Shown one piece after another: positions 44,354 through 64,000 of a stretch of DNA of 64,000 nt (positions are counted from its first letter, which is position 1; each line of letters starts with the position of its first letter). The translations under genes were made by a program, and so were the position numbers. The stretch lies in the NCBI GenBank assembly GCA_028713675.1, contig JAQTNV010000001.1, forward strand, positions 73,879-137,878, in the 5' to 3' direction. The notes under the pieces were generated by a model that searched no databases, was not told where the DNA came from, and worked only from the letters and a program-made list of their open reading frames with translations. This stretch comes from a bacterium (GTDB lineage Bacteria > Desulfobacterota > JAPLJL01).

Positions 44354-44385
44354 AAAAATCTTCCTCTCCTCTCTATTTCCTTGAT

Positions 44386-46686: not shown

Positions 46687-46882
46687 AGCGTCTCCTTTTA
46701 AGTCCCAAATTACGCCAGGTCGGGCGAGGATAACCACAATCCAGAGACTACATATCTACTTGAATTAGTAGTCTTACGGTGGTATATAAGACGTATAACA
46801 ACGTCAGAGATTCCCCTGAAGATTTTCCGCAAATGCGGAAAGGGTGAACTTTCCGTGGAGATGAGGCACAGGAGGAGAAAAC

Positions 46883-48094: not shown

Positions 48095-48188
48095 AACCAT
48101 TTTCCACGAATGTGGAGCGGTAATAGGCCGTCGGTAATTATTAGAAGGGTAGGATCAAAAAGCGATCGGTTAATTTTGGGGGTTACCT

Positions 48189-49196
48189 ATGGATAAAGAT
48201 TATAGACGACTTTTAGAAGATATCGGTATTGCAAAGACCGTTAAGGATGTAAGTGATTTAAAAAAGCAATCGGAAGGATTAGAACGAGGCATAGAAGAGC
48301 TTAACTATAATCAGAGAATTTTAATAGATGAAAATAGGCGGGAGCGAGAGAAAGCAGAAGAACTGGAAATAGAAGAACTTCGTGCAAAAAAAGGTAGTAA
48401 GTTTTTCCATCTTGGAGAAGATTGTTTTGAAAAGAAGAAATGGTCGGAGGCCCTAAACCATTATGAAGTTGCCGCGAGATCCTATCCGCGAGATTGGATT
48501 TTTACCGAGACGAAGGTATTTAGTCAGAAAATGGCACTTTTTCGGATGGCGCAGTGTCTTCTGAATGCAAATAAAATCGATGAGAGCATTCAGATATTAG
48601 AGTCGTTATATGAAAACATCCAAGATTTTGCGGCGGATAAGGATTATTTAAATCTCCAAATTCCAGAAATAAAATCAGAAATGATGATGGCATTTGAAAG
48701 AAAATTAGGTAAGTTATCAAAACAACCTTCTGAAGATTCAGCAATTTTAAATGAAATAAATTTCCTGAAGTATCTTTTATTCCAAATTGATCCGGAAAAA
48801 CATCGCAGCTATGAACCAATTTATTCCAATGTAAAACAAGAAATGGAGAAGGAAAAAGAAGAAAAGAAAAAAGGAGAAGAACAAAGACAGCTTAAAGAAC
48901 AAATCAAAAACCTAAGTGAAAAAAAAGAAGAATTGTTGGCTTACTCAAAATCTGAGTCAGTCGGAGGAATATTGCTCGGTTCTTTTTTTGGGATGGCTGC
49001 CGGGGCTTTCGTAACCTATAGTATGAGAGAAAAGTGGGGAGCATTTTTAAATATCGCTTCTTTTTTTACCATAGTAACCTTGGGAATATTTTTGGGGTGG
49101 CTCGGAGGAAAAAGCAGTCGAGAATACAAGAGAGAAAATTCTAAGATTGATGAGCAAATAAAAGAAATCCAAACCAAACTTTTAAAATATTCATAA
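48189..49196 (+). CDS. coiled-coil protein with C-terminal double TM anchor
   Basis: Long heptad-rich segments and a TPR-like stretch. C-terminal hydrophobic helices GILLGSFFGMAAGAFVTY and FFTIVTLGIFLGWLGG. Confidence 0.65.
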   Translation: MDKDYRRLLEDIGIAKTVKDVSDLKKQSEGLERGIEELNYNQRILIDENRREREKAEELEIEELRAKKGSKFFHLGEDCFEKKKWSEALNHYEVAARSYPRDWIFTETKVFSQKMALFRMAQCLLNANKIDESIQILESLYENIQDFAADKDYLNLQIPEIKSEMMMAFERKLGKLSKQPSEDSAILNEINFLKYLLFQIDPEKHRSYEPIYSNVKQEMEKEKEEKKKGEEQRQLKEQIKNLSEKKEELLAYSKSESVGGILLGSFFGMAAGAFVTYSMREKWGAFLNIASFFTIVTLGIFLGWLGGKSSREYKRENSKIDEQIKEIQTKLLKYS

Positions 49197-50603
49197 ATGG
49201 ATTTCCGCTCCTTACCTCTTTTCAAAGAATACATAAAATTTATCCTTGACCTTCATTCTCTTTTCGAGAAGAGGAGGAAATCAAGAAGTTCAGACGGTCC
49301 TTCGGTCAGTGCCGAGATCGAGGAAAAGATTCAGGCCAAGAAAGCCGAGATCGACAAACTGAATTCAGAAGCCGAACAGTCCGGCTTATTTTTTCCCCTG
49401 GAAAGGCTTTGCAAGGAATACAATCTCAACGATTTGGAGCGGGATATAATCCTTCTCCTTTTCGCACGTAGTTTTTTGGAAGGTGTTACTTATTCCAGCA
49501 CCTCTGGGAAGCAGATTCTCTATTTTCTGATCCCCGATCCGATTGATGTGATGCTTCAGCGTCAGGTGATTATGCCCGAGGGAAAGTTGATGAAGGAAGG
49601 GCTGGTCCATGTATATCGGTTCGCACGTGAAGGTGATCCGTTCCTCGACGGTGGATTTTGCTTGGGTGAACCGGTCTTGTCGTATTTACTCGGAGAGACC
49701 GAAGACCGTGGAGACTGGAAGAATAAAAGAGGGGAAGGGGAACAGGTAGGGTTTTTCCATCGCCATCGAAGACGGGATAGCGGTCCGCTTCTTGAGATTC
49801 GAGAGCCGGGGATAACCTTCACCCAGGTTATCCTCCCGGAAGGCCATCGGGATCGAATTTCCGAGGCGCTAAATCAGCTTGTCCATCAGAACCTTATTTT
49901 TATCGACTGGGGGTTTAAGGAAACTCTCCCGTATGGGAAAGGGGTGACCATACTTTTCTCCGGTCCTCCTGGAACCGGCAAAACAATGACCGCAGCGGCC
50001 TGTGCCGATTTCCTGAGCTTGAAGCTCGGAGTCGTAAGACCTGAGGGAGTGGTGGACCTCTTTGTCGGCGAAACGGAAAAGAATGTCTCGCGGGTATTCC
50101 AGGAAGCCAAAAAGGAAAATTGCCTTTTGTTCTTTGATGAGTGCGATTCCCTTTTTCAGTCCCGATATTCCGGCAGGACGGCAGTTGACCGGATGGAAAG
50201 CCGGTCGGTCAACATCCTCCTGCGGGAGATCGAGCGGAGCTTTGAGGGGGCGGTTATCCTGGCCACAAACCGGGTTTTTGACCTGGACGAAGCCCTGGAA
50301 CGACGAATCTCCCTTAGACTCCAGTTCCCGGTGCCCGATGCAGGGGCCAGAGAGCGGATTTGGCGGGGTTTCTTTCCTGCCCAAGCCCCATTGGACTCCC
50401 AAGTGGATTTTTGGGCTTTAGCGCATGAATATGAGCTTTCTGGGGGGGAAATAAAGAATGCTGTCCTCCGGGCAATCCGGAGGATCGGTTCCCAGTCAGA
50501 GCCAAGGTGCCAGCTAATAACCCAGAATCTTCTTGAGGAAGTTGCCAGGGAGGAACTGGAGTCCCGCTGGAGCCGGGAAGATCGCAAGAGGATTGGGTTT
50601 TAG
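49197..50603 (+). CDS. AAA+ ATPase (classic AAA clade) with unique ~230-aa N-terminal domain
   Basis: Start codon abuts the upstream stop. Walker A GPPGTGKT, Walker B LLFFDECD, sensor-1 ATNR. Confidence 0.85.
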   Translation: MDFRSLPLFKEYIKFILDLHSLFEKRRKSRSSDGPSVSAEIEEKIQAKKAEIDKLNSEAEQSGLFFPLERLCKEYNLNDLERDIILLLFARSFLEGVTYSSTSGKQILYFLIPDPIDVMLQRQVIMPEGKLMKEGLVHVYRFAREGDPFLDGGFCLGEPVLSYLLGETEDRGDWKNKRGEGEQVGFFHRHRRRDSGPLLEIREPGITFTQVILPEGHRDRISEALNQLVHQNLIFIDWGFKETLPYGKGVTILFSGPPGTGKTMTAAACADFLSLKLGVVRPEGVVDLFVGETEKNVSRVFQEAKKENCLLFFDECDSLFQSRYSGRTAVDRMESRSVNILLREIERSFEGAVILATNRVFDLDEALERRISLRLQFPVPDAGARERIWRGFFPAQAPLDSQVDFWALAHEYELSGGEIKNAVLRAIRRIGSQSEPRCQLITQNLLEEVAREELESRWSREDRKRIGF

Positions 50604-50784
50604 CTCCCTGCCGGGTAACCACTGCCCACCTTTTCCACATTCGTGGAAAATAGTCTTTGTATGTTTTACTTGACCATCGGTAGGTATTTTCAGATAATAA
50701 CTCAAGGTCTGAAATTAAAGAGTCTCGAATTAGAAATAATTATAAATTTGATTTAAATTCCATAACGGAAAGGAAGGAGTTCGT

Positions 50785-51900
50785 ATGCGACTGGCAACAT
50801 TTAACGTAGAGAACATGTTCGAGAGAGCCAAAGCTCTGAATCTAGGCTCGTGGACAGAAGGCAAAACCGTTCTTGAGGATTTCAACAGGCTCAACACGTT
50901 GATTCAGGAATCTGTGTATACGGAAGAAATCAAGGCCGAGCTTCTAGATATAATGAAACGTCATAAGGGTTTGATAAAGGACGGCAATAGCGAGTTTCTA
51001 CGTCTTCGCGACGTTCGCGGAAAGTTTCTTTATCGCCCGAAGAACGGGCCAGTTGAAATCGGTGCTGGGGGCAGAAACGACTGGATTGGTTGGTTCGATC
51101 TGGAACGTGAGCCGGTCAAGGAGACAGCCACTGAAAATACTGCCCGGATCATTGGGATGTTGAACGCTGATATATTATGCGTTGTCGAGGCGGAAGATCG
51201 AATCGGTTTAAAGCGCTTCAATGATGCTGTAATCCAAAAAGTTGGTGCAAATTCATTTGGCTCCGTAATGCTGATTGATGGAAACGACGACCGAGGCATC
51301 GATGTCGGAATCATGGTTCGTAGTGAATTCGAGATAGCTCTTATGAAAAGCCACGTTGACGATAAGGACACCAAAGGAACTATTTTTAGCCGTGATTGCG
51401 CTGAATATGAAGTGAAGACCGCACAAGGAAATAAGCTCCTTCTTCTTATCAATCATTTCAAATCAAAAGGTTACGGGCGTTCTGATGAATCGGCTGCGAA
51501 GCGGCTACGGCAGGCAACTAGAGTCCGCCAAATTTATGATGAGCGTATTGCCGAAGGATATAAATACATTGCAATTGCCGGTGATCTAAACGAGATGCCT
51601 GATGAATCACCTATGGACCCGCTCTTGCGCAAAGGTTCCGATTTGACAGACATCATGACGCACCCAAAGTTTATTGGAGATGGACGACCTGGAACGCATG
51701 GCAATGGGACCAAGTCAGCAAAACTCGATTATATTCTTATGTCTCCAAAACTCTCCGAAAAGGTGACGAATGGAGGTTTAGAACGAAGGGGTGTCTGGGG
51801 TGGCAAAAATGGTACGCTCTTTCCGCATATCCCAACCATAGAGATGGAGATGGATGCAGCGTCCGATCATGCAGCGCTGTGGGCTGAAATCGATGTTTAA
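50785..51900 (+). CDS. endonuclease/exonuclease/phosphatase (EEP) family protein
   Basis: MRLATFNVEN start, ADILCVVEAED, C-terminal SDHAALWAEIDV. Confidence 0.82.
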   Translation: MRLATFNVENMFERAKALNLGSWTEGKTVLEDFNRLNTLIQESVYTEEIKAELLDIMKRHKGLIKDGNSEFLRLRDVRGKFLYRPKNGPVEIGAGGRNDWIGWFDLEREPVKETATENTARIIGMLNADILCVVEAEDRIGLKRFNDAVIQKVGANSFGSVMLIDGNDDRGIDVGIMVRSEFEIALMKSHVDDKDTKGTIFSRDCAEYEVKTAQGNKLLLLINHFKSKGYGRSDESAAKRLRQATRVRQIYDERIAEGYKYIAIAGDLNEMPDESPMDPLLRKGSDLTDIMTHPKFIGDGRPGTHGNGTKSAKLDYILMSPKLSEKVTNGGLERRGVWGGKNGTLFPHIPTIEMEMDAASDHAALWAEIDV

Positions 51901-52018
51901 AGCAATGTCATTATTGAACACTATGGAAAGGACTTTTCCCTGCCTGCTGGTCTTTACCTGTTCTCATCATGGCGGCGTTTGTGGGAGTCAAGATTAATTT
52001 TTTAAGGAGGAATATTTT

Positions 52019-52207
52019 ATGAATTTCAAATCAATTATTAAAGTTTTATTCGTTCTTATTTTTTTAACGATTTTCTTTTTTAACTGTGGTTTAGAAGAAG
52101 ATGATAATAAGGCTCCCTGTTGTGATGGAACTACAAGTCCAAGTTGTTATTGTGATGGAGACTTACAAGGGTGTTGTTCTCATCATGGTGGTGTTTGTGG
52201 ATGCTAA
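52019..52207 (+). CDS. small Cys-rich secreted (lipo)peptide, 62 aa
   Basis: AGGAGG RBS. Signal peptide ends in FFNCG. The mature part CCDGTTSPSCYCDGDLQGCCSHHGGVCGC has 9 Cys. A decayed copy of the C-terminus lies at 51924..51998. Confidence 0.5.
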   Translation: MNFKSIIKVLFVLIFLTIFFFNCGLEEDDNKAPCCDGTTSPSCYCDGDLQGCCSHHGGVCGC

Positions 52208-52232
52208 TCTACAAATATATTAAGGAAGAAAA

Positions 52233-52895
52233 ATGAGGAAGAAATCTTTAATCATTGGCCTTTGCGGTTTTTTCGCAGGAATAGCTTTTGTAATCCAGTG
52301 TGGGAACGATGCAAAATCTATAGCAGGCAAGATTGCCACTGCCCTGGATATTTCCTTTGATAATTCTGGGACTAACCTTGCATCCCAAAATGTTCAGGAC
52401 GCTATCTCAGAGATATCCTCGAATATTGATAAATTAAGTGTAAAAAAATCGCTTTATATTAAAGATGGAGATGGAAATTTACTTGGTATTTTTATTCAAA
52501 GACTTTATGGCGGTAGTTATGAATATTTTTCTATTGAAAATAATTCTTTAATGGAAATTAATAGTTTTGATGGCTCTTTATGTTCAGATTTAAGGTCTAT
52601 TCCAGCAATATATTTTATGGAAAATGATTGTGTAGGAAATGCATATTCAAATATAAGTGACATGTGGTCTGGAAAAGATAAAATATTTTGTGGTCCTAAT
52701 AATTCTTTTTACAAAATAAGTAGTGTTTTACTCAAAAACACAAAAGTCATAAGTATGAAAACGGTTGACTCCATTACCAAACAAATTACTTGTAGTAATA
52801 ACCCTTACAATTTCAATATAGATATAGCAAAACTTGAACAAATAACCTTGCCAAAGATACAATATACTCTTCCCATAACGATTGAAGCTAGATAG
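52233..52895 (+). CDS. lipoprotein, N-terminal module paralogous to 46883 product
   Basis: VIQCG lipobox. N-terminal ~60 aa are similar to the discoidin lipoprotein N-terminus (SIAxxIxxAxDxSFDNSGT). Confidence 0.6.
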   Translation: MRKKSLIIGLCGFFAGIAFVIQCGNDAKSIAGKIATALDISFDNSGTNLASQNVQDAISEISSNIDKLSVKKSLYIKDGDGNLLGIFIQRLYGGSYEYFSIENNSLMEINSFDGSLCSDLRSIPAIYFMENDCVGNAYSNISDMWSGKDKIFCGPNNSFYKISSVLLKNTKVISMKTVDSITKQITCSNNPYNFNIDIAKLEQITLPKIQYTLPITIEAR

Positions 52896-52898
52896 ATA

Positions 52899-53624
52899 TT
52901 GAATCCGAAACGGTATATCTTTTTCTTTTTATTCCTACTCTTACTATTATCTCCTTCAGTCTTCTCCTTTCCCCTCTCCCCAGTCTTCCGTGTCGTTGAC
53001 GGTGATACTATTGTCGTAAATTACCAAGGCCAGAAAGAAAAAGTCCGCCTAATCGGTGTAGATACCCCCGAAACCGTCGATCCTCGGCGTCCAGTCCAAT
53101 ATTTCGGGAAAGAGGCATCGAACTTCACTAAAAGGATGCTCACCGGCAAGCAGGTTCGTCTGGAATTCGACCAGAATAAACGGGATAAATACGGTCGGCT
53201 TCTGGCCTATATTCATCTCTCCTTGGCCCAGGCGAAGGATGCACCTGACTGCATGGTAAAATCTGGTCCTGCTGAGTTCGATTTCGATGCTTCCCTGATT
53301 TCCTGCGGTTATGGCCACGCTTATACCCGTTTTCCCTTCGCCAGGATGGATAAATACCGGGACTTGGAACGGCAGGCCCGGTTTTCTAATAGGGGACTAT
53401 GGGCCGGAGGGAATAGCTATGAGAAATTATTCGACAAAGCTGGGGAAAAGGGGATATCTGCCAAGCAGGAAGGGTATTTCGTCGCCAGTAGGAATTCAGA
53501 TAAGTTCCATAGACCCGACTGCAAATGGGCGATGAAGATCAGCGATAGGAACCTGATAAAGTTCAAGACAAGAGAAGAGGCGATAAAGGCAGGGCTTAAG
53601 CCGTGTGGGGTCTGTAGGCCATGA
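52899..53624 (+). CDS. secreted thermonuclease (SNase-like) with C-terminal Ada-type zinc-binding domain
   Basis: VVDGDTI...VRLIGVDTPE SNase motifs. C-terminal FHRPDC...FKTREEAIKAGLKPCGVCRP resembles the Ada metal-binding domain. Confidence 0.8.
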   Translation: MNPKRYIFFFLFLLLLLSPSVFSFPLSPVFRVVDGDTIVVNYQGQKEKVRLIGVDTPETVDPRRPVQYFGKEASNFTKRMLTGKQVRLEFDQNKRDKYGRLLAYIHLSLAQAKDAPDCMVKSGPAEFDFDASLISCGYGHAYTRFPFARMDKYRDLERQARFSNRGLWAGGNSYEKLFDKAGEKGISAKQEGYFVASRNSDKFHRPDCKWAMKISDRNLIKFKTREEAIKAGLKPCGVCRP

Positions 53625-54505
53625 AAAAAATTAGAAATAAAATAAAATTAAACATGCCTAAAGATCTGGAAATTCTCATTTCCGAAAAATCTACATTGAA
53701 TAGACAATTTTTTCGACTCGCTGATGAAGCTGGTGATCCTCAGCAATTAGTATCTGAACTATTTGATATTCTGCCAAATAAAATAAAAGAAGCACCAGCT
53801 TTTTTATTAATAACTGGGAAATGGCATTATGATTATGGTATTCCGTATATAAATCTACCCGAAAATACGAATGTGATTGGGACCCCACAATGGCCAGAGG
53901 TAAAAATCCTTTATCAATCCTTAAAAATAGCTCATACGTATTTAACGCATCAGCAATTTGATGTGTTTGTTCAAAGGTTGATAGATCCGGCAAAACACAA
54001 TGATGTATTGTTTGAAATGAGGCCACTGTTATATATCACAAAATCTTTTTGCCCAATATACGAAGTTTCCGGGTATGGTTCGGGTAATAAAACTATTGAT
54101 TGGTTAATAAAGCCAGCTTCTCCGCCATTCTTTTTAACTGAAGTAAAAAATCGTGAGAAAAGCATGATCAAATTTCTTCATGATGTCACTCCTAAACTTA
54201 ATCGTGGAGAAGATTTCATTATTCCCCCCAAACCTGATCCTGGTGATCTTTTCAAGAGCACATTAGAAAAATTCAAATCAAGAATAGACAGCTCATGGTT
54301 ACAAGGCGTATGGGTCCAAACACAAATTATTGAAGATAGATCATCCGTCATTCAATATTTTAACAAAATTGATCATACTATATTGCAGTTTTTAATTATT
54401 TCTAAATGGGGAAAAGATGCTTTTGTTTTAACACGGACAGAGCAACAGAAACGTCAATTGATAGATTTTTTTGAAATTAATGAGTCAACTTTATTGGATT
54501 ACTGA
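53621..54505 (+). CDS. hypothetical protein (294 aa), translationally coupled to the nuclease gene
   Basis: ATGA overlap with the upstream stop. AT-rich. No family recognised. Confidence 0.55.
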   Translation: MKKIRNKIKLNMPKDLEILISEKSTLNRQFFRLADEAGDPQQLVSELFDILPNKIKEAPAFLLITGKWHYDYGIPYINLPENTNVIGTPQWPEVKILYQSLKIAHTYLTHQQFDVFVQRLIDPAKHNDVLFEMRPLLYITKSFCPIYEVSGYGSGNKTIDWLIKPASPPFFLTEVKNREKSMIKFLHDVTPKLNRGEDFIIPPKPDPGDLFKSTLEKFKSRIDSSWLQGVWVQTQIIEDRSSVIQYFNKIDHTILQFLIISKWGKDAFVLTRTEQQKRQLIDFFEINESTLLDY

Positions 54506-54539
54506 AATTGAAGAATCCCATAATTCCAAAACTAATTAA

Positions 54540-56885
54540 TCAATTGATCTGACGAACGCACCGAAACCCGAGGTTGTCGCCCCGATACGCCCAGCGGGTG
54601 CTGCCTCGACCCGAAGCGCGCAGAGAGCCGGTGCCGTAGTTCCAACTGCCACCACGAATGACACGGGACGACCCCGATGAAGGCCCTTGTGGGTTCCGGG
54701 ACGGGCTTTTACCGTAATATCCCGAATCATACCAATCACTCACCCACTCCCAAACATTTCCTGCCATATCCATCACCCCATAAGGACTCGCCCCTTTAGG
54801 TTTAGAGCCAACCGGCCAAGTGGAATCCTTCCCGCACCCATTACCGCCATAACCTATCACCATATAATCGCAATTTGCCGTCTCATTTCCCCAGGGATAT
54901 TTACGGCCATCCGTTCCCCGCGCGGCCTTCTCCCACTCTGCCTCCGTCGGCAATCGCTTCCCCGCCCATTCGCAATAATTATTGGCGTCGTGCCAATCCA
55001 CACAATTCACCGGGTGATTCCCCCGATCTGAATACCCCCAGTTGCAATACTGGTTGTCGCTTTTGGATTTCGGTGCATCGCACTTCAAGGTATTCACGCA
55101 TTTCTGGTATTCCGCCACCGTCACTTCGTATTTATCAATGTAATATGCATCCAGGGTTACCTGATGATAGGGTTTCCCATCGTCACCGCATTGATTATCA
55201 ACCGAGGAATTGCATCCCATCATGAATTCACCGGTAGGAATATACGCCATATCAGGATATTTTTTCTTAGCCACTTCCTCCGCAACCTTCTCTTCCTTTT
55301 TCCTTACTACCTCCTCCGATTCTTCCAGTTTGATCGTCACCGAGGCCATTTTTTGGTCTTCAATTAGTGCGGTTTTATTTCCCTCTTTGTCTTTGGTTTT
55401 CACTATTATCTCATGGTTTCCCACCGGGATACCGGTAAGCGTAAGCGGGGCGCTTCCTTTTTTTATCCCATCAATAAAAACCTTCGCCCCTGGTTCTGGC
55501 GGGTCGGTAAAAATGCTCAGGGAACCCACCATTTGAACCAATTTCCCTTGCTCTCGCGTGATCGCTACCTGCTTTCCACTGGCAATAGAAAGCTTGAACG
55601 ACTTGGTATGGTAACCATCCATCCTCAAAGAAAGCTCATATTGCCCCGGCGAGAGTTCAATCGATACCGGCGTCTTTGTTTGGAGATCTACAATATGAGC
55701 TACTTCTCCATTTTCATTAACAATTTTTACAGGCACCATCGGGAAGACTTGTGTCTTGCCCTGATCGGTATTGTTGACGAATACCTCCGCTCCGGCAGGA
55801 TCGGACTCTAATGAAACCGTCCCGAAATTGGGAGACAGCGGATAGTTCTTTATAGTCTTCTTTTCGTCTTCCACCAAAACCACCTGATTCTTGATCGGAT
55901 CATAAAGATCGAGAGAAACCGAGACCAGGCACTCTCCCGATCTCATCCGCTCGTTCCGGTATGGGGTAGTCCCCACCTGCGTGCCCCCGATCTCCACCTT
56001 TGCCCCTGGCGGTTCCGAGACAATCTCTAGGGTTCCGAAATTGGGCTTGAGCTTTAGGCCTTCATATTTGGTTACCCCCGGCTTCAAATTCACGGGAAAA
56101 ACCAAGGGATGAAAATCCGATTTTTGCAGGGTGACCTGGACAACCTTGCCCGGCTCCAGGTCGGTCTTCTGGAAGGCTGGTTCGGTGTTCCCCGTCTTGA
56201 GATTCCCGAGGTAAACATCCGCACCCGAAGGACTGGTCGTAATATAAAGACCGGCGGGACCCGATGCTGCGGTAACTACCTGGGTAGGATTAACCTCGGT
56301 GATTCCCCCTTCTGCCGGGCCTGAAGGAACTAACCCCGGAGAAACGAACCCTGGACCCACCCCAGATTCCTTACCTTCCTTCCGACCTGATAATTTCCTC
56401 CCCAAAATATGGGCTGCTTTCTGCAAATCACCGGCCTGGCACAAGCAGCTCTCGATCTTGGTTTGGTCCACGAAATAAAGAACTGTATTGGGTTTTCGCT
56501 TATAAAGCTTCGCCGAGAATGCACATTTTTCTCCCGCCTTACTGACCTCTGCTTTTACAAATAAATCCGCATCCAGCTCAGCGGCAAGATCAGCCAAGCA
56601 CTCTGGTCCATCGCAAGATTTCTGGCTTTTTTCCTGGATTTGTTTGAAATAATAATAAAGCGTATCCCGGTCAACCAGATTGTAATTACCAGCATCGGCA
56701 AATTCAGCAGTAAGCGCATCGGTCAGAACCCCTTCCTGGATCGGCTTGGGGGTAAGACCTTTCAAATCCACCTCGAAGATAACCAATACCTCTTTTTTCT
56801 GGGCGAGGAGAGCTGGAGCCAGGAGTGCAAGTAGAGCACAGGTTAGGATCAGTTTTTGCATGGTTAGGTTAGCCCGCATTTTCAC
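54540..56885 (-). CDS. secreted PEGA-repeat protein with C-terminal formylglycine-generating-enzyme (FGE/SUMF1-like) domain
   Basis: Signal peptide, several PEGA-like repeats, and C-terminal FGE motifs (YHQVTLDAYYIDKYEVT, RLPTEAEWEKAARG, RGGSW). The start codon is uncertain (GTG at 56885 or ATG at 56879/56861). Confidence 0.8.
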   Translation of the reverse strand: MKMRANLTMQKLILTCALLALLAPALLAQKKEVLVIFEVDLKGLTPKPIQEGVLTDALTAEFADAGNYNLVDRDTLYYYFKQIQEKSQKSCDGPECLADLAAELDADLFVKAEVSKAGEKCAFSAKLYKRKPNTVLYFVDQTKIESCLCQAGDLQKAAHILGRKLSGRKEGKESGVGPGFVSPGLVPSGPAEGGITEVNPTQVVTAASGPAGLYITTSPSGADVYLGNLKTGNTEPAFQKTDLEPGKVVQVTLQKSDFHPLVFPVNLKPGVTKYEGLKLKPNFGTLEIVSEPPGAKVEIGGTQVGTTPYRNERMRSGECLVSVSLDLYDPIKNQVVLVEDEKKTIKNYPLSPNFGTVSLESDPAGAEVFVNNTDQGKTQVFPMVPVKIVNENGEVAHIVDLQTKTPVSIELSPGQYELSLRMDGYHTKSFKLSIASGKQVAITREQGKLVQMVGSLSIFTDPPEPGAKVFIDGIKKGSAPLTLTGIPVGNHEIIVKTKDKEGNKTALIEDQKMASVTIKLEESEEVVRKKEEKVAEEVAKKKYPDMAYIPTGEFMMGCNSSVDNQCGDDGKPYHQVTLDAYYIDKYEVTVAEYQKCVNTLKCDAPKSKSDNQYCNWGYSDRGNHPVNCVDWHDANNYCEWAGKRLPTEAEWEKAARGTDGRKYPWGNETANCDYMVIGYGGNGCGKDSTWPVGSKPKGASPYGVMDMAGNVWEWVSDWYDSGYYGKSPSRNPQGPSSGSSRVIRGGSWNYGTGSLRASGRGSTRWAYRGDNLGFRCVRQIN

Positions 56886-57111
56886 TGGTCTTTTTTATTG
56901 ACTTGATCCACCCAGCATAGAACATACTCCAGTTATGGTCGGGATCGTCCTTCGAGGCGGACATCCTGACCGACTGGGACCTCTCGTTGTAATCGGTAAG
57001 GTAGCCCAGGGCGTCGAGGTCGCCGTGCTTTAGGATATAGACCCGCTGGCCTCGGTATTCCCGAAGTTTCGCTTTTATTACATCTGGGACCTTGTCGGGT
57101 ATCTGGATCAT
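56869..57111 (-). CDS. hypothetical small protein (80 aa)
   Basis: Overlaps both flanking minus-strand genes (4 nt upstream, 17 nt downstream). Confidence 0.4.
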   Translation of the reverse strand: MIQIPDKVPDVIKAKLREYRGQRVYILKHGDLDALGYLTDYNERSQSVRMSASKDDPDHNWSMFYAGWIKSIKKTSENAG

Positions 57112-57326
57112 TTTGCTTTTTTTCTTTTTACCTCATTCAGCAATTCATTCGCCCTTTTATCCAGTTCCTTGGCATCGATCAGGCCCTTTTCCATCATCTG
57201 CTCAAGAGCCGCTTTAAACGGGATCAGGGCAAGGACCACTTGATTATGGTTCTTGGTTAATTCCTCAACGGATTCTTCGAGTTTTTTAATACGGGTTAGA
57301 GTGTCTTTGAAATCTTTTTCAGTCAT
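57108..57326 (-). CDS. hypothetical small coiled-coil protein (72 aa)
   Basis: ORF with a 4-nt overlap to the 80-aa ORF. Confidence 0.4.
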   Translation of the reverse strand: MTEKDFKDTLTRIKKLEESVEELTKNHNQVVLALIPFKAALEQMMEKGLIDAKELDKRANELLNEVKRKKAK

Positions 57327-57421
57327 CTAATCTTTCTAAGCAGAGTCCTGCCATGTGAGCATAGGTAGCTACCTGACCGATGGTTTCAATAAGTTAAACA
57401 AACCTTCTATTTAATTACTTT

Positions 57422-58153
57422 TTACCTTGAAGGGGGGATGGTAAACATACGTCTGGCTTCAATGTTTTCCTTAAATACTTTATTAATGTGTTTCTCTAAT
57501 TCTTCTTCATATTTTTTTGCTCGTTCTTCTTCGACTTGCGGTGAAGGCTTTTCTGGTTTTGAAGGATTACCGACATCGTCATTATAAACATAGTAGACTT
57601 CAATTCTCTTATTTTTTTTGTCAATTATTTCAGTGGGCGTAAAAGTGTATTCTTTTCTAATTTCTTCAAAATTTATTATTGAATCATGAAAGCTCTTGGA
57701 GACCAGAAGATGATTTTCATCCCCTGTATCCATTATCCTTTGTGTGTTGTTGATAGCGTTTCCTGCAATATTTTCTTTGCCATTAATATCAGAATAAATA
57801 CATCCAGGTCCATTATGTAAGCCCACACGAATTCTAATGCATGATCTCTTTACAATTATCAATAAAAGCACGGCAAAATTGAAAGCTGTATGTTCATTAT
57901 TAAAACACAAGACTACACCATCGCCAGTAGGAAATTCTGTAACAATATCCTTATGTTTTCTCTTAATATAAGATAGGGTAGAAGTTAATCTTGTTATAAC
58001 ATACCATGCCTTTTCATTAGGAAGAAAACTATAACTGACAATATCAATAAAAAGATAGGAATAGGAGGCCTTTTTATATCTTCCTTCCTTGTATACGTCG
58101 ATTAATTGGGATTCCTTTTCTTTTTCTTCTTCTATTTCCGCTAAATATTTCAT
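57422..58153 (-). CDS. standalone class III nucleotidyl cyclase domain protein
   Basis: LFIDIVSYS (metal Asp 1), PTGDGVVLCF (Asp 2), IRVGLHNGPG, GNAINNTQRIMDTGD. These match adenylate/guanylate (or pyrimidine) cyclase catalytic motifs. 243 aa with no sensor domain. Confidence 0.7.
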   Translation of the reverse strand: MKYLAEIEEEKEKESQLIDVYKEGRYKKASYSYLFIDIVSYSFLPNEKAWYVITRLTSTLSYIKRKHKDIVTEFPTGDGVVLCFNNEHTAFNFAVLLLIIVKRSCIRIRVGLHNGPGCIYSDINGKENIAGNAINNTQRIMDTGDENHLLVSKSFHDSIINFEEIRKEYTFTPTEIIDKKNKRIEVYYVYNDDVGNPSKPEKPSPQVEEERAKKYEEELEKHINKVFKENIEARRMFTIPPSR

Positions 58154-58197
58154 GTTTTCTCCAAAATGTTGCTTAAAAGAACAGACCTTCGACTCTA

Positions 58198-58548
58198 TTA
58201 CTTCTCGGAAATAATTCTGGCTATCCTCAGAACCTTCTCTAATTGGTCGAGATCAAGGTTCTTCAGCACCTTTTCGATCTTGGCTATCTGGGTTTCCTTG
58301 GCTTCCTCTTCCTTCGACCCTGTCTTTGGAGGAATCAAATCTAATAGTTCGAGGAGATCAACTTTCAGGGCATCGGCTATTCTGTTCAGGACATCGATGC
58401 TCGGGTTCTTTTCCGCCCGCTCGATCTCGCCGACATATTTATAGGAAAGATCCGACAGGTCTCCCAGTTGCTGCTGGGTCAGGTTCCTCTCCCGTCGGGT
58501 GGATCTTAACTTTTCTCCGAGTCCTTTGATTAAAATCTGCTTGTCCAT
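58198..58548 (-). CDS. XRE-family HTH regulator
   Basis: RRERNLTQQQLGDLSDLS...IERAEKNPS HTH_3. Confidence 0.8.
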   Translation of the reverse strand: MDKQILIKGLGEKLRSTRRERNLTQQQLGDLSDLSYKYVGEIERAEKNPSIDVLNRIADALKVDLLELLDLIPPKTGSKEEEAKETQIAKIEKVLKNLDLDQLEKVLRIARIISEK

Positions 58549-58626
58549 TTGATTTTTATATAACCAATTATATGATAGGAAAAACCTAGGTCAAGAAAAA
58601 TAAGCTGTGCATAGGATTTAAGAAAT

Positions 58627-58977
58627 ATGAACAAGGACATATATCTCAAATTCGGACGACGGCTCAAATCATTGCGGAAAGAAACTGGTTTGAGTCAGAG
58701 AGAACTTGCCCAGCGAGCTAACCTATCCACTAACTATCTTGCTTTACTGGAAACAGGCAATCGTTCTCCGTCATTCAAGACCATTACGGTATTGGCTAAA
58801 GTTCTGCAAGTGCCGATCAGCGTGCTAATGGATTTAGAAGTTCAGGAAAAAGTGGAAAAGAAAAAAGGTAGGAAAACCTTGGATTATCGAGAGCGAATGA
58901 TGCGCTTTCTTTTTGCCAAGAGCGACGCCAAGGTAAAACTTGCCTATGAGGTTCTCCGCAAAATTTTACAAGAGTAA
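58627..58977 (+). CDS. XRE-family HTH regulator (divergent from 58198..58548)
   Basis: RKETGLSQRELAQRANLSTNYLALLETGNRSPS HTH_3. Confidence 0.8.
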   Translation: MNKDIYLKFGRRLKSLRKETGLSQRELAQRANLSTNYLALLETGNRSPSFKTITVLAKVLQVPISVLMDLEVQEKVEKKKGRKTLDYRERMMRFLFAKSDAKVKLAYEVLRKILQE

Positions 58978-59201
58978 CCGAGGAATACCCGACCGGCTGG
59001 TCGGAAGTCACATTATGTGACTTTTACTCCACAAATGTGGAAAGTGATCTTCATCATATTTTATTGGGCCTCGAAATTGGAAAGGATCAGATAGAAAAGC
59101 CGGTCTATGCGCTTGGGTTATAGCCCAATCTCCTCTTTATTAGACAAGATTTATAGCTGGTGATATTCTGCATTCATACGGTGAAAAATAGGGAGCAAGA
59201 A

Positions 59202-60965
59202 ATGAACCTCATTTCCAGAAAATGGTGGCTGGTTATTGTTCCAATTTGCATATTTGGTTCAGGTTGGGCTTGTGGAGGAGGTAATGGAAATTCTTCAGAA
59301 TCATCGCTGACTGCCCCTTCAAATCTCCAGGCAATGGTGATTTCTTCAATCCAGATCAACCTTACCTGGACCGATAATTCCGATAACGAGGATGGGTTCA
59401 AGATTGAGCGGAGGACCGGCACGGGGGGCATTTATGACGTGGTCTCAACCCCTTCCGCCAACATAACAAGCTGGGATGACAGCGGCTTAATTCAAGGCAC
59501 CACTTATTACTATAGAATTCGCGCATATATCTCTGATAAGGATTCAGAATATTCCGACGAGGTTAGTGCAACTACTAGCAATACTTCTGCGATAATTCCC
59601 GTTATCCCAGCCGCCCCCTCTGGTCTGACCGCAACGGTGATTTCTTCAACTCAAATCAATCTTACCTGGAAGGATAATTCCACCAACGAGAATGGCTTTG
59701 TGATCGAGAGGAAAACAGGGCTATCGGGAACATATGCTCAGGCTGCGACGGTCGGAGTCAATGTTACCTCTTACTCAGATACGGGTCTTTCGGCAGGGAC
59801 CACTTATTACTATCGGGTTTATTCCTACAATTCGACCGGGAACTCAAGTTATTCTATCGAGGTGAGCGCGACTCCAATGTCTATCCGCGATTCCTGGATA
59901 CCCACCAGCACCGGGACAAATGTGCCTTCAGGAAGGCATAGCCATACTGCTGTTTGGACAGGGACCGAGATGATTGTCTGGGGTGGTAGTGAATTTAACT
60001 CTGGCTCCATCAACACTGGAGGTAGATATAATCCCTCCACCGATTCTTGGACAACCACCAGCACCGGAGTAAACGTGCCTTCAGGAAGGTCTATCCATAC
60101 CGCAGTCTGGACAGGGTCTGAAATGATCATCTGGGGTGGGAGTGGTAGTATTGCTTCTGGTTCTCTTTATCTTAATACCGGGGGTAAATATAATCCGTCC
60201 ACCGATGCCTGGACCGCCACCAGCACCGGGACAAATGTGCCTGAAGGAAGGTATTACCATGTTGCCGTTTGGACAGGGACTGAAATGGTCGTCTGGGGTG
60301 GTTATGGCGGTGCTTACTTTTTCACCACCGGGGGTAGGTATAATCCGTCCACCGATTCCTGGACTGCCACCAGCACCGGGACAAATGTGCCTTTAGTAAG
60401 GGATTTATATACTACCGTTTGGACAGGGACGGAAATGATCATCTGGGGCGGGACATCAGGTGACTCTACTGGTGGTAAGTATGATCCCTCCACTGATTCC
60501 TGGACAGACACCAGCACCGGCGCGAATGTGCCTGCAGGAAGGAATCGCCATACCGCAGTCTGGACAGGAACCGAAATGATCATCTGGGGTGGGTGGGGTA
60601 TTATTGGATTTAACACCTACGGGGCGCTCAACACCGGGGGTAGATATAATCCGTCAACCGATTCCTGGACCGCCACCAGCACCGGGAACTATGTGCCTAC
60701 AGGAAGAGTTTGGGATGATTATCCCCCTGCCGTTTGGACAGGGACTGAAATGATCATCTGGGGTGGTCATGACGGTTCTAAAATTTTCAACACCGGGGGT
60801 AAATATAATCCGTCCACCAATTCCTGGACAGACACCAGCACCGGGCCAAATGTGCCTTCAGCAAGATATTCATATTCTACAGTTTGGACAGGGACGGAAA
60901 TGATCATCTGGGGTGGTTATGGCGGTCCTGATATTTTTAACACCGGGGGGAAATATACACCTTGA
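59202..60965 (+). CDS. lipoprotein with two fibronectin-III domains and ~11 Kelch-like beta-propeller repeats
   Basis: Start at the ATG with a GGGAGCAAG RBS. Lipobox WACGG. FN3 pair (PSNLQAMVISSIQINLTWTDNSDNEDGFKIERR... x2), then an HTAVWTGTEMIIWGG repeat about every 45 aa. Confidence 0.78.
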   Translation: MNLISRKWWLVIVPICIFGSGWACGGGNGNSSESSLTAPSNLQAMVISSIQINLTWTDNSDNEDGFKIERRTGTGGIYDVVSTPSANITSWDDSGLIQGTTYYYRIRAYISDKDSEYSDEVSATTSNTSAIIPVIPAAPSGLTATVISSTQINLTWKDNSTNENGFVIERKTGLSGTYAQAATVGVNVTSYSDTGLSAGTTYYYRVYSYNSTGNSSYSIEVSATPMSIRDSWIPTSTGTNVPSGRHSHTAVWTGTEMIVWGGSEFNSGSINTGGRYNPSTDSWTTTSTGVNVPSGRSIHTAVWTGSEMIIWGGSGSIASGSLYLNTGGKYNPSTDAWTATSTGTNVPEGRYYHVAVWTGTEMVVWGGYGGAYFFTTGGRYNPSTDSWTATSTGTNVPLVRDLYTTVWTGTEMIIWGGTSGDSTGGKYDPSTDSWTDTSTGANVPAGRNRHTAVWTGTEMIIWGGWGIIGFNTYGALNTGGRYNPSTDSWTATSTGNYVPTGRVWDDYPPAVWTGTEMIIWGGHDGSKIFNTGGKYNPSTNSWTDTSTGPNVPSARYSYSTVWTGTEMIIWGGYGGPDIFNTGGKYTP

Positions 60966-61015
60966 CGGGTTTCTGCAAATACGTTGAATCAACCTCCGGG
61001 AAAATCAGAGCTAAT

Positions 61016-61570
61016 ATGGAAGAAATTAATAATATTGCGATTGAGATTAGAAAATATGTCAATGAATTTCATTTATATGATAAACATTTTTTAGATAGGA
61101 ATGATGATTGGAAATCTATTTGTGTTGGAATGGATTTATTAGAGGATTCTTGTTTAGCGCTTATATATTACGAAGAAAATGCCGTTGGAGGTAGTGATGG
61201 CGAAAAATACCTTAAATTATATGGATTCCTTCAAGCAGTTTTTTTACAGCAGGATTCAATAAAATTTATTTATGAAAATTTATTAGGACATAGTCTGAAG
61301 CCAGATCCTAATTCGGCCTGGGAAGAAATCAGAAATCTTAGGAATCTCACTACTGGTCATCCAATTAAACAAGGGTGGGACAATAAGATAAAAAGATGTT
61401 TTGTCCATAGAATAACGCTAAAAAAAGATAGCTTCAGCGTTACTGTATTTGATAATCAAAAATCCGCCCCGGAGAATAAAGATATTAATCTAAAAAATTT
61501 ATTTGATAGATATAAATCAGAAGCAATTACTTGTCTCAAGAAAATATTAGAGACCCGCCGCAACGCTTAA
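61016..61570 (+). CDS. hypothetical protein (~184 aa; track ORF 60962..61570)
   Basis: AT-rich ORF. Start uncertain. No family recognised. Confidence 0.45.
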   Translation: MEEINNIAIEIRKYVNEFHLYDKHFLDRNDDWKSICVGMDLLEDSCLALIYYEENAVGGSDGEKYLKLYGFLQAVFLQQDSIKFIYENLLGHSLKPDPNSAWEEIRNLRNLTTGHPIKQGWDNKIKRCFVHRITLKKDSFSVTVFDNQKSAPENKDINLKNLFDRYKSEAITCLKKILETRRNA

Positions 61571-61658
61571 TTTATAAGTAGGTTTGTTCCACAAACGTGG
61601 AAACAATCTGCCGCAATTCCCCAATCCATCTTTAGACTAACCTGCTGATAATTCATCC

Positions 61659-64000
61659 ATGAAACGAAATAAATCTCCCATCAAATTAGAGCTTGTCCGG
61701 CAATGGCATCCTACAAAGAATGGAAAACTAACGCCGAGAGATGTCACCGCTGGCTCACATAAAAAAGTATGGTGGTTATGTAAAAAAAACAATACACATG
61801 AATGGCAGGCAACGATCAAGGGCCGAAGTATTAGTCAAGGTTGTCCGTATTGTTCAGGTAGATTGGTAAGTAAAGATAACTGCCTTGCGACGGTTAATCC
61901 TGCTTTGGCCCGACAATGGCATCCAAAGAAAAATGGAAAACTAACGCCAAGAGATTTCACCGCCAAATCAACAGAAATTATTTGGTGGTTATGCCCAAAA
62001 AATAATGCACATGAATGGAAAGCAACTATTAACAGCCGAAATAGGGGAGACGGCTGTCCATATTGTTCAGGCAGACGGGTAAGTAAAGATAACTGCCTTG
62101 CAAAGGTTAATCCTGCTTTAGCCCGGCAATGGCATCCTACAAAGAATGGAAATCTGACGCCAAGCATGGTCACCGCTCACTCGAATGAAAAAGTTTGGTG
62201 GCAATGTCCAAAAAACAATACACACGAATGGAAAACAACTATTTCCGAGCGCAGTAGGGGATACGGTTGCCCATACTGTGTTGGTAGATTTGTGAGCAAA
62301 GATAACTGCCTTCAGACGGTTAATCCGGCTTTGGCCCGACAATGGCATCCAAAGAAAAATGGAAAACTAACGCCAAGAGATTTCACCGCCAAATCAGGTA
62401 AAACAGTCTGGTGGTTATGTCCCAAAAACAATACACATGAATGGAAAGCAACTATTAACAGTCGCAGTAGGGGCGACGGTTGTCCATATTGTTCAGGGAA
62501 ACGGGTATGTAAAGAAAACTGCCTTGCGACGGTTAATCCTGCTTTGGCCCGACAATGGCATCCAAAGAAAAATGGAAAACTAACGCCAAGAGATTTCACC
62601 GCCAACTCAAATAAAAAGTTTTGGTGGCAATGCCCAAAATCAAAAAACCACGTTTGGCGGACATCAATCCTTAGTCGAAACTGGGATCGTAGAGGCTGTC
62701 CGTATTGTGCAAATCAATATGTAGATAAAGAAAACTGCCTTGCGACGGTTAATCCTGCTCTGGCCCGGCAATGGCATCCTACAAAAAATGGAAAATTGAC
62801 GCCAAGAGATATCGTCGCTGGCTCTACCAAAAAAGCATGGTGGTTATGCTCAAGAGGACATGAATGGCAAGCAATGATCCTTAGTCGGAATAAGGGCGTT
62901 GGATGTCCCCAATGTCATTCAAATTCATCTCATTTAGAACTTTGTGTCCTAACTCAAATGCAATATCTCTTTGGTGATAATAATGTTAAGCATCGGAAAA
63001 AAATTATAAATGAAGAGTGCGATGTTTTTATTGAACGATTTAAAATTGCTATCGAAATAGATGGCGTTTATTGGCATAGGGAAAAAATTAGGAAGGAAAA
63101 GAAAAAGAATAAAATATTTCAAGAAACCGGAGTTATTTTAATAAGAATAAGAGAAGAAGGTCTTCCAAAATTATCGTCAACCGATATATTTTTCAAATCC
63201 ACAGATAGGCCCTTTGATATAACATGTAGGGTAATTAAAAAAATTCTCAAGACCGAAAAACTTCATACCAAAGCAGAAAAAAAACTTAAAAATTATTTAA
63301 AAAGAAAAGACATTGCTAATAAAGAAAGGTATTTATATCTTTTATCCATTTTACCTTCGCCAATACCTGGCACCAGCTTGCAGGACCTGAATAAAAAGAT
63401 AACCGCAGAATGGCACCCTACAAAAAATGGATCGCTTACCCCAAGGAATTTTTTGCCTTCTTCTCATCAAAAAATCTGGTGGCAATGTCCAAATAACCAT
63501 CACCATGAATGGGAAGCAACTATTGATAGTCGCAATAGGGGGGGGCATGGGTGCCCATATTGCTCAGGCAACCGTGTAAGTAAAGATAATTGTCTTGCGA
63601 CGGTTTTCCCAGCTTTAGCTCGGCAATGGCATCCTACGAAAAACGGAAAACTGACGCCCCAAGATTTCGTTGTTGGCTCACATAAAAAAGTATGGTGGTT
63701 ATGCCCAAAAAACAATGAACATGAATGGGAAACAACTATTGGCGGTCGCAGTAGGGAAACCGGTTGCCCATATTGTTCAGGGAAATGGGTAAGTAAAGAT
63801 AACTGCCTTGCGACGGTTAATCCTACTTTGGCTCGGGAATGGCATCTGACGAAGAATGGAAAGCTAACGCCAAGAGATTTCACTGCCAACTCAAATAAAA
63901 AGTTTTGGTGGCAATGCCCAAAATTTAAAAAACATGTATGGAAGGCATCAATCCTTAACCGAAATTGGAATGGTAGTGGCTGTCCATATTGTTCGGGCAA
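61659..64000 (+). CDS. large zinc-ribbon-repeat protein with embedded DUF559/Vsr-like PD-(D/E)xK endonuclease domain (3' partial, runs off window)
   Basis: Manual translation of the frame from the ATG at 61659 gives an uninterrupted ORF to position 64000. It contains nine or more ~45-aa repeats (WHPTKNGKLTP.D...S.K..WW.C....HEW.A.I..R.RG.GCPYC). Between repeats 6 and 7 lies ECDVFIERFKIAIEIDGVYWH, a DUF559-like nuclease core. Not in the ORF track because there is no stop in the window. Confidence 0.8.
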   Translation, partial: MKRNKSPIKLELVRQWHPTKNGKLTPRDVTAGSHKKVWWLCKKNNTHEWQATIKGRSISQGCPYCSGRLVSKDNCLATVNPALARQWHPKKNGKLTPRDFTAKSTEIIWWLCPKNNAHEWKATINSRNRGDGCPYCSGRRVSKDNCLAKVNPALARQWHPTKNGNLTPSMVTAHSNEKVWWQCPKNNTHEWKTTISERSRGYGCPYCVGRFVSKDNCLQTVNPALARQWHPKKNGKLTPRDFTAKSGKTVWWLCPKNNTHEWKATINSRSRGDGCPYCSGKRVCKENCLATVNPALARQWHPKKNGKLTPRDFTANSNKKFWWQCPKSKNHVWRTSILSRNWDRRGCPYCANQYVDKENCLATVNPALARQWHPTKNGKLTPRDIVAGSTKKAWWLCSRGHEWQAMILSRNKGVGCPQCHSNSSHLELCVLTQMQYLFGDNNVKHRKKIINEECDVFIERFKIAIEIDGVYWHREKIRKEKKKNKIFQETGVILIRIREEGLPKLSSTDIFFKSTDRPFDITCRVIKKILKTEKLHTKAEKKLKNYLKRKDIANKERYLYLLSILPSPIPGTSLQDLNKKITAEWHPTKNGSLTPRNFLPSSHQKIWWQCPNNHHHEWEATIDSRNRGGHGCPYCSGNRVSKDNCLATVFPALARQWHPTKNGKLTPQDFVVGSHKKVWWLCPKNNEHEWETTIGGRSRETGCPYCSGKWVSKDNCLATVNPTLAREWHLTKNGKLTPRDFTANSNKKFWWQCPKFKKHVWKASILNRNWNGSGCPYCSG

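Follow-up and report, generated by a model that had tools for sequence, protein, structure and literature searches.

I-Bth0305I (PDB 3R3P; PMC3239194), the founding EDxHD/Vsr-like homing endonuclease, is a 266-amino-acid (aa) protein encoded by an intron in phage recA, in which a C-terminal nuclease of the Vsr-like variant of the PD-(D/E)xK fold is joined to a separate modular DNA-binding region containing two NUMOD-type motifs and a presumed helix-turn-helix (HTH). Homing endonuclease genes (HEGs) of phage group II introns combine three to five CapR/DUF4379/DUF723-like domains with a C-terminal EDxHD/Vsr domain; the tandem Cys-rich domains, ∼60 aa each, were called distantly related to Pfam CapR, DUF4379, and DUF723, and thousands of unannotated UniProt relatives were noted (PMC12350094). 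In giant viruses, Lausannevirus and Insectomime (ISTM_159) “putative restriction endonucleases” carry four DUF4379 domains along with a domain of restriction-endonuclease type (PMC5513546), and the family is also massively amplified in fungi (PMC5513546, PMC11291939). CapR, a zinc finger repressor that descends from a homing endonuclease, is a specific DNA binder that requires its four cysteines for binding (PMC8096241). mt-SAF33, a Trypanosoma mitoribosome assembly factor with one DUF4379 domain, has been reported to be bound to 9S rRNA, at the immature h22/h23 region (PMC8784144). Here we describe a gene encoding DUF4379 repeats and a predicted EDxHD/Vsr-like nuclease domain at the end of a 64,000-nucleotide (nt) stretch of bacterial DNA (Desulfobacterota; assembly GCA_028713675.1, contig JAQTNV010000001.1, positions 73,879 to 137,878), referred to below as the window.

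The composite protein, completed from an overlapping contig, has 875 aa and ten zinc fingers, six before and four after the central domain. I-Bth0305I is the best profile and fold match to that central domain, and the two proteins share the Vsr-like variant fold and a bipartite plan (predicted here) of nuclease and separate modular DNA-binding regions. Unlike I-Bth0305I, the window protein is chromosomal and free-standing, places its nuclease centrally between zinc fingers, and has an extra ∼80-aa helical extension; its predicted binding modules are the zinc fingers in place of NUMOD-type motifs and an HTH, and sequence similarity is marginal (24.5 bits). The “CapR-like + EDxHD/Vsr” outgroup of PMC12350094 likewise pairs tandem Cys-rich domains with an EDxHD/Vsr nuclease, and the size of the family agrees; the HEGs differ from the window gene in having three to five repeats rather than 6 + 4, a C-terminal rather than a central nuclease, and a location inside introns. 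The giant-virus proteins, likened by published description, have a similar architecture with fewer repeats, and viral contigs match only the nuclease core of the bacterial central domain. The window gene is one more member of a large, known but uncharacterized family and not a new kind of system. With moderate confidence, we favor the view that its product is a stand-alone, free-standing endonuclease, homing or selfish in type, that acts on a long site in DNA.

The plus-strand gene and its 3′ end

Direct translation of plus-strand frame +1 from the ATG at 61659 to base 64000 yields 780 codons and zero stops; a first-pass annotation made from the letters had claimed such an uninterrupted frame. 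The other five frames of 61659-64000 contain 14 to 71 stops each (antisense frames, 14 to 47), and the frame was open in 0 of 2,000 composition-preserving shuffles of the region. An in-frame TAA lies at 61638-61640 on the plus strand with no ATG, GTG, or TTG between it and 61659, so the ATG at 61659 is the only possible start. The 780-codon open reading frame (ORF) had gone unlisted only because ORFs that extend beyond an end are left out by the ORF lister; there is no problem with the sequence. The listed minus-strand ORFs had been suspected of being artifacts, and this was borne out: the antisense frames are riddled with stops, and the four longest minus-strand ORFs gave zero Pfam matches at E ≤ 0.1. 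Scans for promoters and terminators around the nuclease gene returned nothing above chance. The gene and its antisense echoes are placed as follows.

61659..64000, plus strand: protein-coding gene, the 5′ 780 of 875 codons (translation, shuffles, Pfam, overlapping contig L001)
61637..64000, minus strand: antisense ORFs of 50 to 166 aa that echo the repeat periodicity; not genes (stops, no Pfam match)

The first-pass annotation had proposed looking for the stop past the contig end, and it was located on L001, a 4,037-bp contig (JAQTSW010000083, assembly GCA_028711105.1) found via homolog P0013. P0013, a 594-aa protein encoded on L001, was 100% identical to the query across the shared region in the homolog search. 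Bases 19-1544 of L001 correspond to window positions 62475-64000 at 99.5% identity; the 7 mismatches are all confined to the 42 bases at the start of the overlap (window 62477-62516), and the remaining 1,484 bases are identical. L001 adds 95 codons, comprising a tenth repeat and a 25-aa tail, followed by TAA (L001:1828-1830), which places the stop codon 288 nt past the window end and gives the composite of 875 aa. L001 begins within repeat R4/R5, and its mismatches cluster in its first bases (L001 1-60). These 5′ mismatches are consistent with a short-read assembly breaking or becoming chimeric inside DNA repeats that are 76-90% identical. With such a break in the repeats, the L001 gene call (TTG start, 594 aa) is a 5′-truncated artifact.

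The ratio of nonsynonymous to synonymous substitution rates (dN/dS) between repeats of the gene was 0.19-0.66, with dS up to ∼1 (Nei-Gojobori), which indicates purifying selection and speaks against a decaying pseudogene. The plus-strand frame is a real gene under purifying selection, and this is firmly shown.

Zinc-finger repeats and the central domain

At least nine copies of a motif of the form W-HP-KNG...WW.C...H.W...R..G.GCPYC had been noticed in the frame; there are nine in the window and ten in the full protein. The module length first given, ∼45 aa, is too short and reflects the zinc-binding core: units recur every 71-72 aa, each made of a ∼50-aa zinc-binding core and a ∼20-aa conserved linker (NCLATVNPALARQ), and the WHP motifs start at aa 16, 87, 158, 229, 300, 372, 585, 657, 728, and 800. 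The ten units are arranged 6 + 4 on either side of a 166-aa central segment. The suggestion that they are PF14311-type zinc fingers held for every repeat. PF14311 (DUF4379, “probable treble clef zinc finger”) matches the window ORF with 604.7 bits (E = 2e-186) over nine stretches, and single repeats score 78-81 bits against a gathering cutoff of 24.5. Repeats in the window were located with a repeat hidden Markov model (HMM) on the six-frame translation, at E = 1e-34 to 1e-39 each for R1-R6. The parts of the protein are placed as follows.

61665..62915, plus strand: N-terminal array of six DUF4379 treble-clef repeats (repeat HMM, PF14311, ligands)
61665-61853, plus strand: R1
61875-62066, plus strand: R2
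62088-62279, plus strand: R3
62301-62492, plus strand: R4
62514-62708, plus strand: R5
62730-62915, plus strand: R6
62928..63158, plus strand: predicted catalytic core, EDxHD/Vsr-like (DUF559/MTES_1575-type), aa 424-500 (homolog conservation, profile, AlphaFold2 [AF2], Foldseek)
63159..63407, plus strand: conserved helical extension, aa 501-583, ending in LPSPxPGxSL (AF2, conserved columns)
63372..63992, plus strand: first three of four C-terminal DUF4379 repeats (repeat HMM)
63372-63563, plus strand: R7
63585-63776, plus strand: R8
63798-63992, plus strand: R9
beyond the window, plus strand: R10 and a 25-aa tail (composite with L001)

The C-H-C-C ligand set (WWxC...H...CPxC) is kept in 10/10 repeats, predicting zinc binding, and its conservation is 96-100% among 1,334 repeats taken from 120 homologs. 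Across these 1,334 repeats a rigid scaffold (W15, H16, N20, W37, W38, C40, H46, W48, R55, C61, and C64) alternates with ∼12 positions of high per-position entropy. The ∼12 variable sites are compatible with specificity-determining surfaces and not with a compact code. At the DNA level, R2 and R4 are 90% identical and R5, R9, and R10 are 78-89% identical, which points to recent duplication of units within the gene; diversifying selection between recently duplicated repeats was not detected by the Nei-Gojobori method (dN/dS below 1).

An AF2 model of R4-R6, the nuclease, and R7-R8 reached a mean local confidence (pLDDT) of 88.8 and a global score (pTM) of 0.51. Each modeled unit has a pair of short helices, a β-hairpin, one more short helix, and a knuckle, as fits a treble-clef finger. 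The best PDB matches of the repeat model by Foldseek were 6yxx_E2 (E = 7e-10) and mt-SAF33 (chain Fd of 9hny, 6sga, and 7pua; E = 4e-5 to 7e-5), and the same two proteins were matched by sequence (6YXX chain E2, E = 2.2e-9; mt-SAF33, 6SGA Fd, E = 3.7e-6). These Trypanosoma mitoribosome assembly factors are the only solved DUF4379 structures. They differ from the window protein in being eukaryotic and ribosome associated, with no nuclease domain detected by sequence, and they show what the fold is capable of, not that the query protein acts on RNA. The repeats of the query are bona fide DUF4379 domains, unlike those of the group II intron HEGs. The CapR-DUF4379 relationship claimed in PMC12350094 was not confirmed by hmmscan and, if there is any, is too distant for hmmscan.

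The first-pass annotation had also pointed to a DUF559/Vsr-like PD-(D/E)xK core between repeats 6 and 7, where ECDVFIERFKIAIEIDGVYWH lies at aa 453-473, and profile, model, and conservation data all supported that assignment. The central segment was excised from 112 homologs and aligned, and a 31-sequence profile (A1) was used for searches. Near-invariant columns in the 112 homologs are S424, E427, E453, D455, E466, D468, G469, H473, D480, K483, and R496, and the set E427, D455, E466, D468, H473, and K483 occurs complete in 103 of them and in the query. Position 480 is acidic in 112/112 (Asp in 106, Glu in 6); the query has Glu there, as do five other, otherwise intact relatives, and it also has Glu in place of Pro at position 459. 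Judged from these residues, the active site looks intact. Verified codon starts of the core residues are listed below.

S424: 62928
E427: 62937
E453: 63015
D455: 63021
E466: 63054
D468: 63060
H473: 63075
E480: 63096 (Asp in 95% of relatives)
K483: 63105

Against all PDB sequences, the A1 profile best matched the catalytic domain of I-Bth0305I (3r3p; E = 2.2e-4). An AF2 model made from A1 (pLDDT 91.9, pTM 0.85) has the elements H8-21, E26-28, E39-41, E46-51, H59-72, and E76-82, an α-β-β-β-α-β core, with D455 (model residue 38) and E466/D468 (49/51) in or beside the second and third strands. Its top Foldseek match in the PDB was again 3r3p (chain B; probability 1.00, E = 5.9e-3, TM score 0.54 on the target), followed by the archaeal nuclease Bax1, the DUF559-type protein 3hrl, and Vsr with DNA (1cw0); the E-values, 6e-3 to 9e-2, are modest, but these matches form a coherent set. 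Beyond the core, the model predicts the helices H101-115, H120-130, and H138-146 of the extension, which has conserved Y, N, P, and S columns and is present in bacterial relatives; viral contig matches cover only about query residues 1-100 of the central domain.

A search for DUF559 by HMM, proposed at the outset, gave a divided answer. When the 31 members of A1 were scanned singly (E ≤ 0.1), 25 matched MTES_1575, 24 DUF559, and 10 Vsr. The isolated domain of the query scored below the gathering cutoffs of all three families (16.4 versus 20.6 for DUF559, PF04480; 18.7 versus 38.2 for MTES_1575, PF18741; 17.5 versus 27 for Vsr, PF03852) and gave 18.4 bits for the Vsr model TIGR00632 against a cutoff of 97.85. 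The nuclease call therefore rests on profile and fold evidence and not on Pfam membership. The query shares with DUF559, MTES_1575, and Vsr a common superfamily fold and the motif ...D...ExDG...H..., and the relation is one of homology at the superfamily level only. Taken with that scope, profile and model together firmly show a Vsr/EDxHD-type nuclease fold for the central domain.

Residues were mapped by reading the A1/3r3p profile alignment with PMC3239194. All four elements of the composite EDxHD motif (Glu, metal-binding Asp, general-base His, and a neighboring acid) are matched, the last as Glu here.

D455: I-Bth0305I D196, Vsr D51; proposed Mg2+ ligand
H473: I-Bth0305I H213, Vsr H69; proposed general base
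position 480: I-Bth0305I D222, Vsr D97; proposed acidic active-site residue
E427: I-Bth0305I E170, Vsr E25; possible accessory acidic residue
E466: I-Bth0305I E206, position of Vsr F62; extra conserved acidic residue
D468: I-Bth0305I N208

The Vsr-like fold also drew weak Foldseek matches in the Toxoplasma mitoribosome (9i05_X* and 9g6k_Li, E = 0.08-0.9). Taken with the DUF4379 domains of the Trypanosoma assembly factors, these matches suggest that eukaryotic mitoribosomes have repeatedly domesticated such nuclease modules as RNA-binding factors.

Family distribution and genomic context

A word-indexed search returned over 7,600 homologs, the best full-length relatives being 53-56% identical, and a profile search with the central domain against representatives at 50% identity returned 17,165 proteins at E ≤ 1e-3, 3,090 at E ≤ 1e-10, and 589 at E ≤ 1e-30. 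Such proteins carry the NCBI label “zinc-ribbon domain-containing.” In species-representative genomes, 427 loci were confirmed, and taxonomic spread was read from the best 80 of them. These come from Planctomycetota, Chlorobi, Elusimicrobiota, Bacteroidota, Bdellovibrionota, Chlamydiota, Dependentiae, several Legionella species, Francisellaceae, Omnitrophota, Desulfobacterota, SAR11, SAR116, Prochlorococcus, Nitrospira, and others; amoeba-associated lineages seemed frequent among the best 80. About 112 of the 120 top matches have 2 to 11 repeats, the nuclease, and then 0 to 13 repeats, and the genome loci share this layout. A similar layout accompanies the matches among PHROG families (phrog_559, 2e-44; phrog_681, 5e-34; and phrog_3339, “homing endonuclease,” 1e-8).

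Whether repeat number varies between strains was among the checks first proposed, and it does. Two metagenomic contigs (L003 and L007) carry the nuclease gene at one syntenic locus where the flanking genes are 95-98% identical in DNA; the nuclease genes themselves are only 80-86% identical and have 7 + 4 versus 4 + 6 repeats. Rapid repeat turnover in the family is firmly shown. At another locus (L063; also in clusters from L041 and L056), the adjoining gene is a second, diverged family copy, and such paralogs in tandem may have arisen by duplication in place or by repeated insertion.

The GC content of the window is 0.52-0.63 up to ∼46 kb and 0.38-0.49 from there to the end. The low-GC segment holds three HTH proteins, a lectin-domain protein, several ORFs without family match, and the following features.

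48189-49196: TPR protein adjoining the IetA-like ATPase
49197-50603: IetA-like AAA ATPase (PADLOC IetA, 2.9e-34)
50785-51900: endonuclease/exonuclease/phosphatase (EEP) nuclease
52899-53624: SNase-fold nuclease with a C-terminal Ada-type zinc-binding domain (PADLOC candidate “C3a212 SNc+LTD,” 5e-32)
54540-56885, minus strand: large, apparently surface-type protein with an FGE-sulfatase domain and four PEGA repeats
58198-58548, minus strand, and 58627-58977, plus strand: divergent pair of 116-aa HTH_3 proteins beside a cyclase-like ORF
59160-61570, plus strand: large, apparently surface-type protein with a Kelch β-propeller and Fn3 domains

The IetA-like ATPase is followed by the EEP nuclease in place of the IetS protease of the known IetAS system, and 48189-51900 may be a variant ATPase-nuclease defense pair. 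The SNase gene lies between two closely spaced ORFs without family match (52233-52895 and 53621-54505), with which it may form a three-gene module (52233-54505). A 243-aa minus-strand ORF in 57422-58977 has faint similarity to nucleotide cyclases (Guanylate_cyc, 8.6e-4; PADLOC PycC, 0.0083), and the divergent HTH_3 pair has a layout like that of a repressor/antirepressor switch. There is a 4-nt overlap between the stop of the Kelch/Fn3 gene and the start of a 202-aa ORF without family match, which is directly upstream of the nuclease gene. Downstream of the nuclease gene, the opposite strand of L001 (1853-4036) encodes a 285-aa ORF without family match and a tyrosine integrase. Window positions 46000-64000 together with L001 probably represent an island that was acquired horizontally and has many conflict genes; neither the window nor L001 contains a tRNA gene, and no flanking repeat was found to bound the island.

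Two tandem FadL/TodX-family outer-membrane transporter genes lie at 43022-45765, and these genes, with the 52-63% GC of 1-46 kb, indicate a diderm host. L001 comes from a metagenome-assembled genome labeled “Candidatus Pacebacteria,” a group not expected to have an outer membrane, and the 4-kb contig was probably misbinned.

All-versus-all BLAST clustering of 250 neighbor proteins from 69 loci revealed no recurrent partner gene. The largest neighbor cluster spans three loci, and its printed member is a second family copy; median intergenic gaps are 306 and 148 nt. The contexts of relatives vary, often have a mobile or conflict-related character (toxin-antitoxin genes, Abi genes, integrases), and include RES-Xre, AbiJ/Abi_C with PIN-PhD, and SIR2_2 (a weak match) with HEPN-MNT and an integrase. 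The annotated ORFs of 43-64 kb and the two L001 genes showed no methyltransferase domain. A type II restriction-modification nuclease was considered and rejected, given the lack of a nearby methyltransferase in those regions and of any neighbor recurring in the 69 loci.

Proposed activity and rival explanations

For DNA binding by the repeats, DNA cleavage, and the biological role, we infer the following. A single Mg2+-dependent EDxHD/Vsr-like domain would be held between six N-terminal and four C-terminal DUF4379 fingers, each 71-72-aa unit binding one Zn2+ through C-H-C-C. The units would lie in series along the nucleic acid, so that the two arms read a long site flanking the scissile position, where the central domain would cut, with D455 and E466/D468 binding metal, H473 as the general base, and E427 and E480 as accessory acids. 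A monomer would have one active site and would nick; a double-strand break would need dimerization. As the gene lacks a methyltransferase or immunity partner, protection of the host from self-cleavage would have to come from a target site that is long and rare. Free-standing endonucleases of the homing or selfish kind follow the same logic, and the gene lies on a low-GC mobile island. Homing-type affinity is indicated by the PHROG matches, by the “HEase” hit of PADLOC, and by the likeness to the phage intron HEGs of PMC12350094, and the solitary occurrence, mobile contexts, and rapid repeat turnover also favor this reading. Nucleic acid binding by this class of domain is illustrated by the reported mt-SAF33-rRNA contact (PMC8784144) and, in a zinc finger related in kind, by CapR (PMC8096241).

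Several observations weigh against a long-site endonuclease of this type. The family is rare in sequenced phages, with 14 matches among 50,697 GenBank records, all weak and below 35% identity; the large form is thus untypical of phages. The gene shows no intron or intein context, and neither an empty target site nor a target sequence was identified. DNA binding is not known for any DUF4379 domain, the solved examples occurring only with rRNA in trypanosome mitoribosome assembly intermediates (PMC8784144). Single repeats match only DUF4379 at E ≤ 10 in hmmscan, with no Pfam CapR or DUF723 signal, and their variable positions are spread over ∼12 sites with no sharp recognition code. The arrangement of domains in the R4-R8 model is uncertain, as its pTM shows, the Foldseek E-values of the nuclease are modest (6e-3), and the isolated domain falls below the Pfam gathering cutoffs given above. 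Finally, several neighbors are defense-like and fit a defensive role equally well.

That role is the main rival, which we consider possible and rather unlikely: a stand-alone antiphage or antiplasmid nuclease in a defense island, whose fingers would recognize foreign DNA or a modified or structural feature that the Vsr-like domain would then degrade. The IetA-like ATPase, the SNase candidate, the HTH regulators, and other nucleases in the low-GC segment favor it, as do the AbiJ/Abi_C and PIN-PhD, RES-Xre, SIR2_2, HEPN-MNT, and integrase genes beside relatives, and rapid repeat turnover would fit an arms race. However, islands also collect selfish nucleases, so the neighborhood does not discriminate; the search of PADLOC-DB v2 gave no defense-system match, only a weak “HEase” hit on the nuclease core (E = 0.0044, 14.7 bits); and the 69 loci revealed no conserved partner or self-protection gene. 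Moreover, repeat dN/dS stays below 1 with no diversifying signal detected, and occurrence in giant viruses and massive amplification in fungi (PMC5513546, PMC11291939) look selfish rather than protective.

A stronger form of the endonuclease reading, which we regard as doubtful, is that the DUF4379 array is a natural modular DNA-reading scaffold, in which each 72-aa unit would read a fixed number of base pairs via its ∼12 variable surface positions, and duplication, loss, and shuffling of units would retarget a generic central nickase. Such a protein, with its bilateral 6 + 4 arms, would be a bacterial counterpart of engineered zinc-finger nucleases and TALENs, which likewise join tandem modular binding units to a nuclease with little specificity of its own. 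The likeness is one of analogy only: unlike those tools, the window protein is natural and built on a ∼72-aa treble clef rather than a C2H2 finger or TALE repeat, and no per-repeat code is evident.

Somewhat less probable still is domestication as a noncutting nucleic-acid binder, either a CapR-like DNA regulator or an RNA-binding or scaffolding factor, in which the nuclease-like domain would be structural or serve binding only. CapR itself is a precedent (PMC8096241), DUF4379 proteins are rRNA-associated assembly factors in Trypanosoma (PMC8784144), and the query departs from the usual residues at Glu480 and Glu459. Against this, the query and the 103 relatives counted above retain every catalytic position, position 480 is always acidic, and Glu480 recurs in otherwise intact proteins. 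The gene is under purifying selection across its length, and the family has a sporadic, island-borne distribution and not the conserved synteny expected of a housekeeping factor.

A Vsr-type mismatch-repair nickase, cutting 5′ of T in T:G mismatches that arise from deamination of 5-methylcytosine, is effectively excluded. It draws on weak matches to PF03852 (E = 0.0037-0.035) and TIGR00632 (0.002) and on the presence of 1cw0 among the Foldseek matches, but the scores lie far below the cutoffs (14-18 bits for PF03852 versus 27, and as given above for TIGR00632), and I-Bth0305I and DUF559-type structures match better than Vsr. Ten fingers flanking a nuclease are unlike Vsr, whose solved chain (1cw0_A) has 155 residues, and the annotated ORFs of 43-64 kb showed no cytosine methyltransferase, nor does one recur beside relatives. 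Last, the notion that the plus frame is not a gene (a chance open frame over a DNA repeat, or a pseudogene) and that the minus-strand ORFs are the real features can appeal to the repetitive DNA, with 76-90% identity between units, and to one fairly open antisense frame (14 stops), but it is refuted by the shuffles, the Pfam match, the homologous proteins, the dN/dS values, and the lack of any family match for the minus-strand ORFs.

For annotation, one real gene replaces spurious antisense ORFs, and the label “zinc-ribbon domain-containing protein” gains a testable function. Because the public copy is split inside its repeats, the locus also illustrates that repeat-rich genes break short-read assemblies. 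If the proposed mechanism is true, the family would comprise thousands of natural rare-cutting nucleases with target length scaling with repeat number; these would be potential tools as well as, for bacteria, giant viruses, and some eukaryotes, an unrecognized source of genome instability and gene drive. If the arrays are truly modular, they would be of high interest as a retargetable DNA-reading scaffold.

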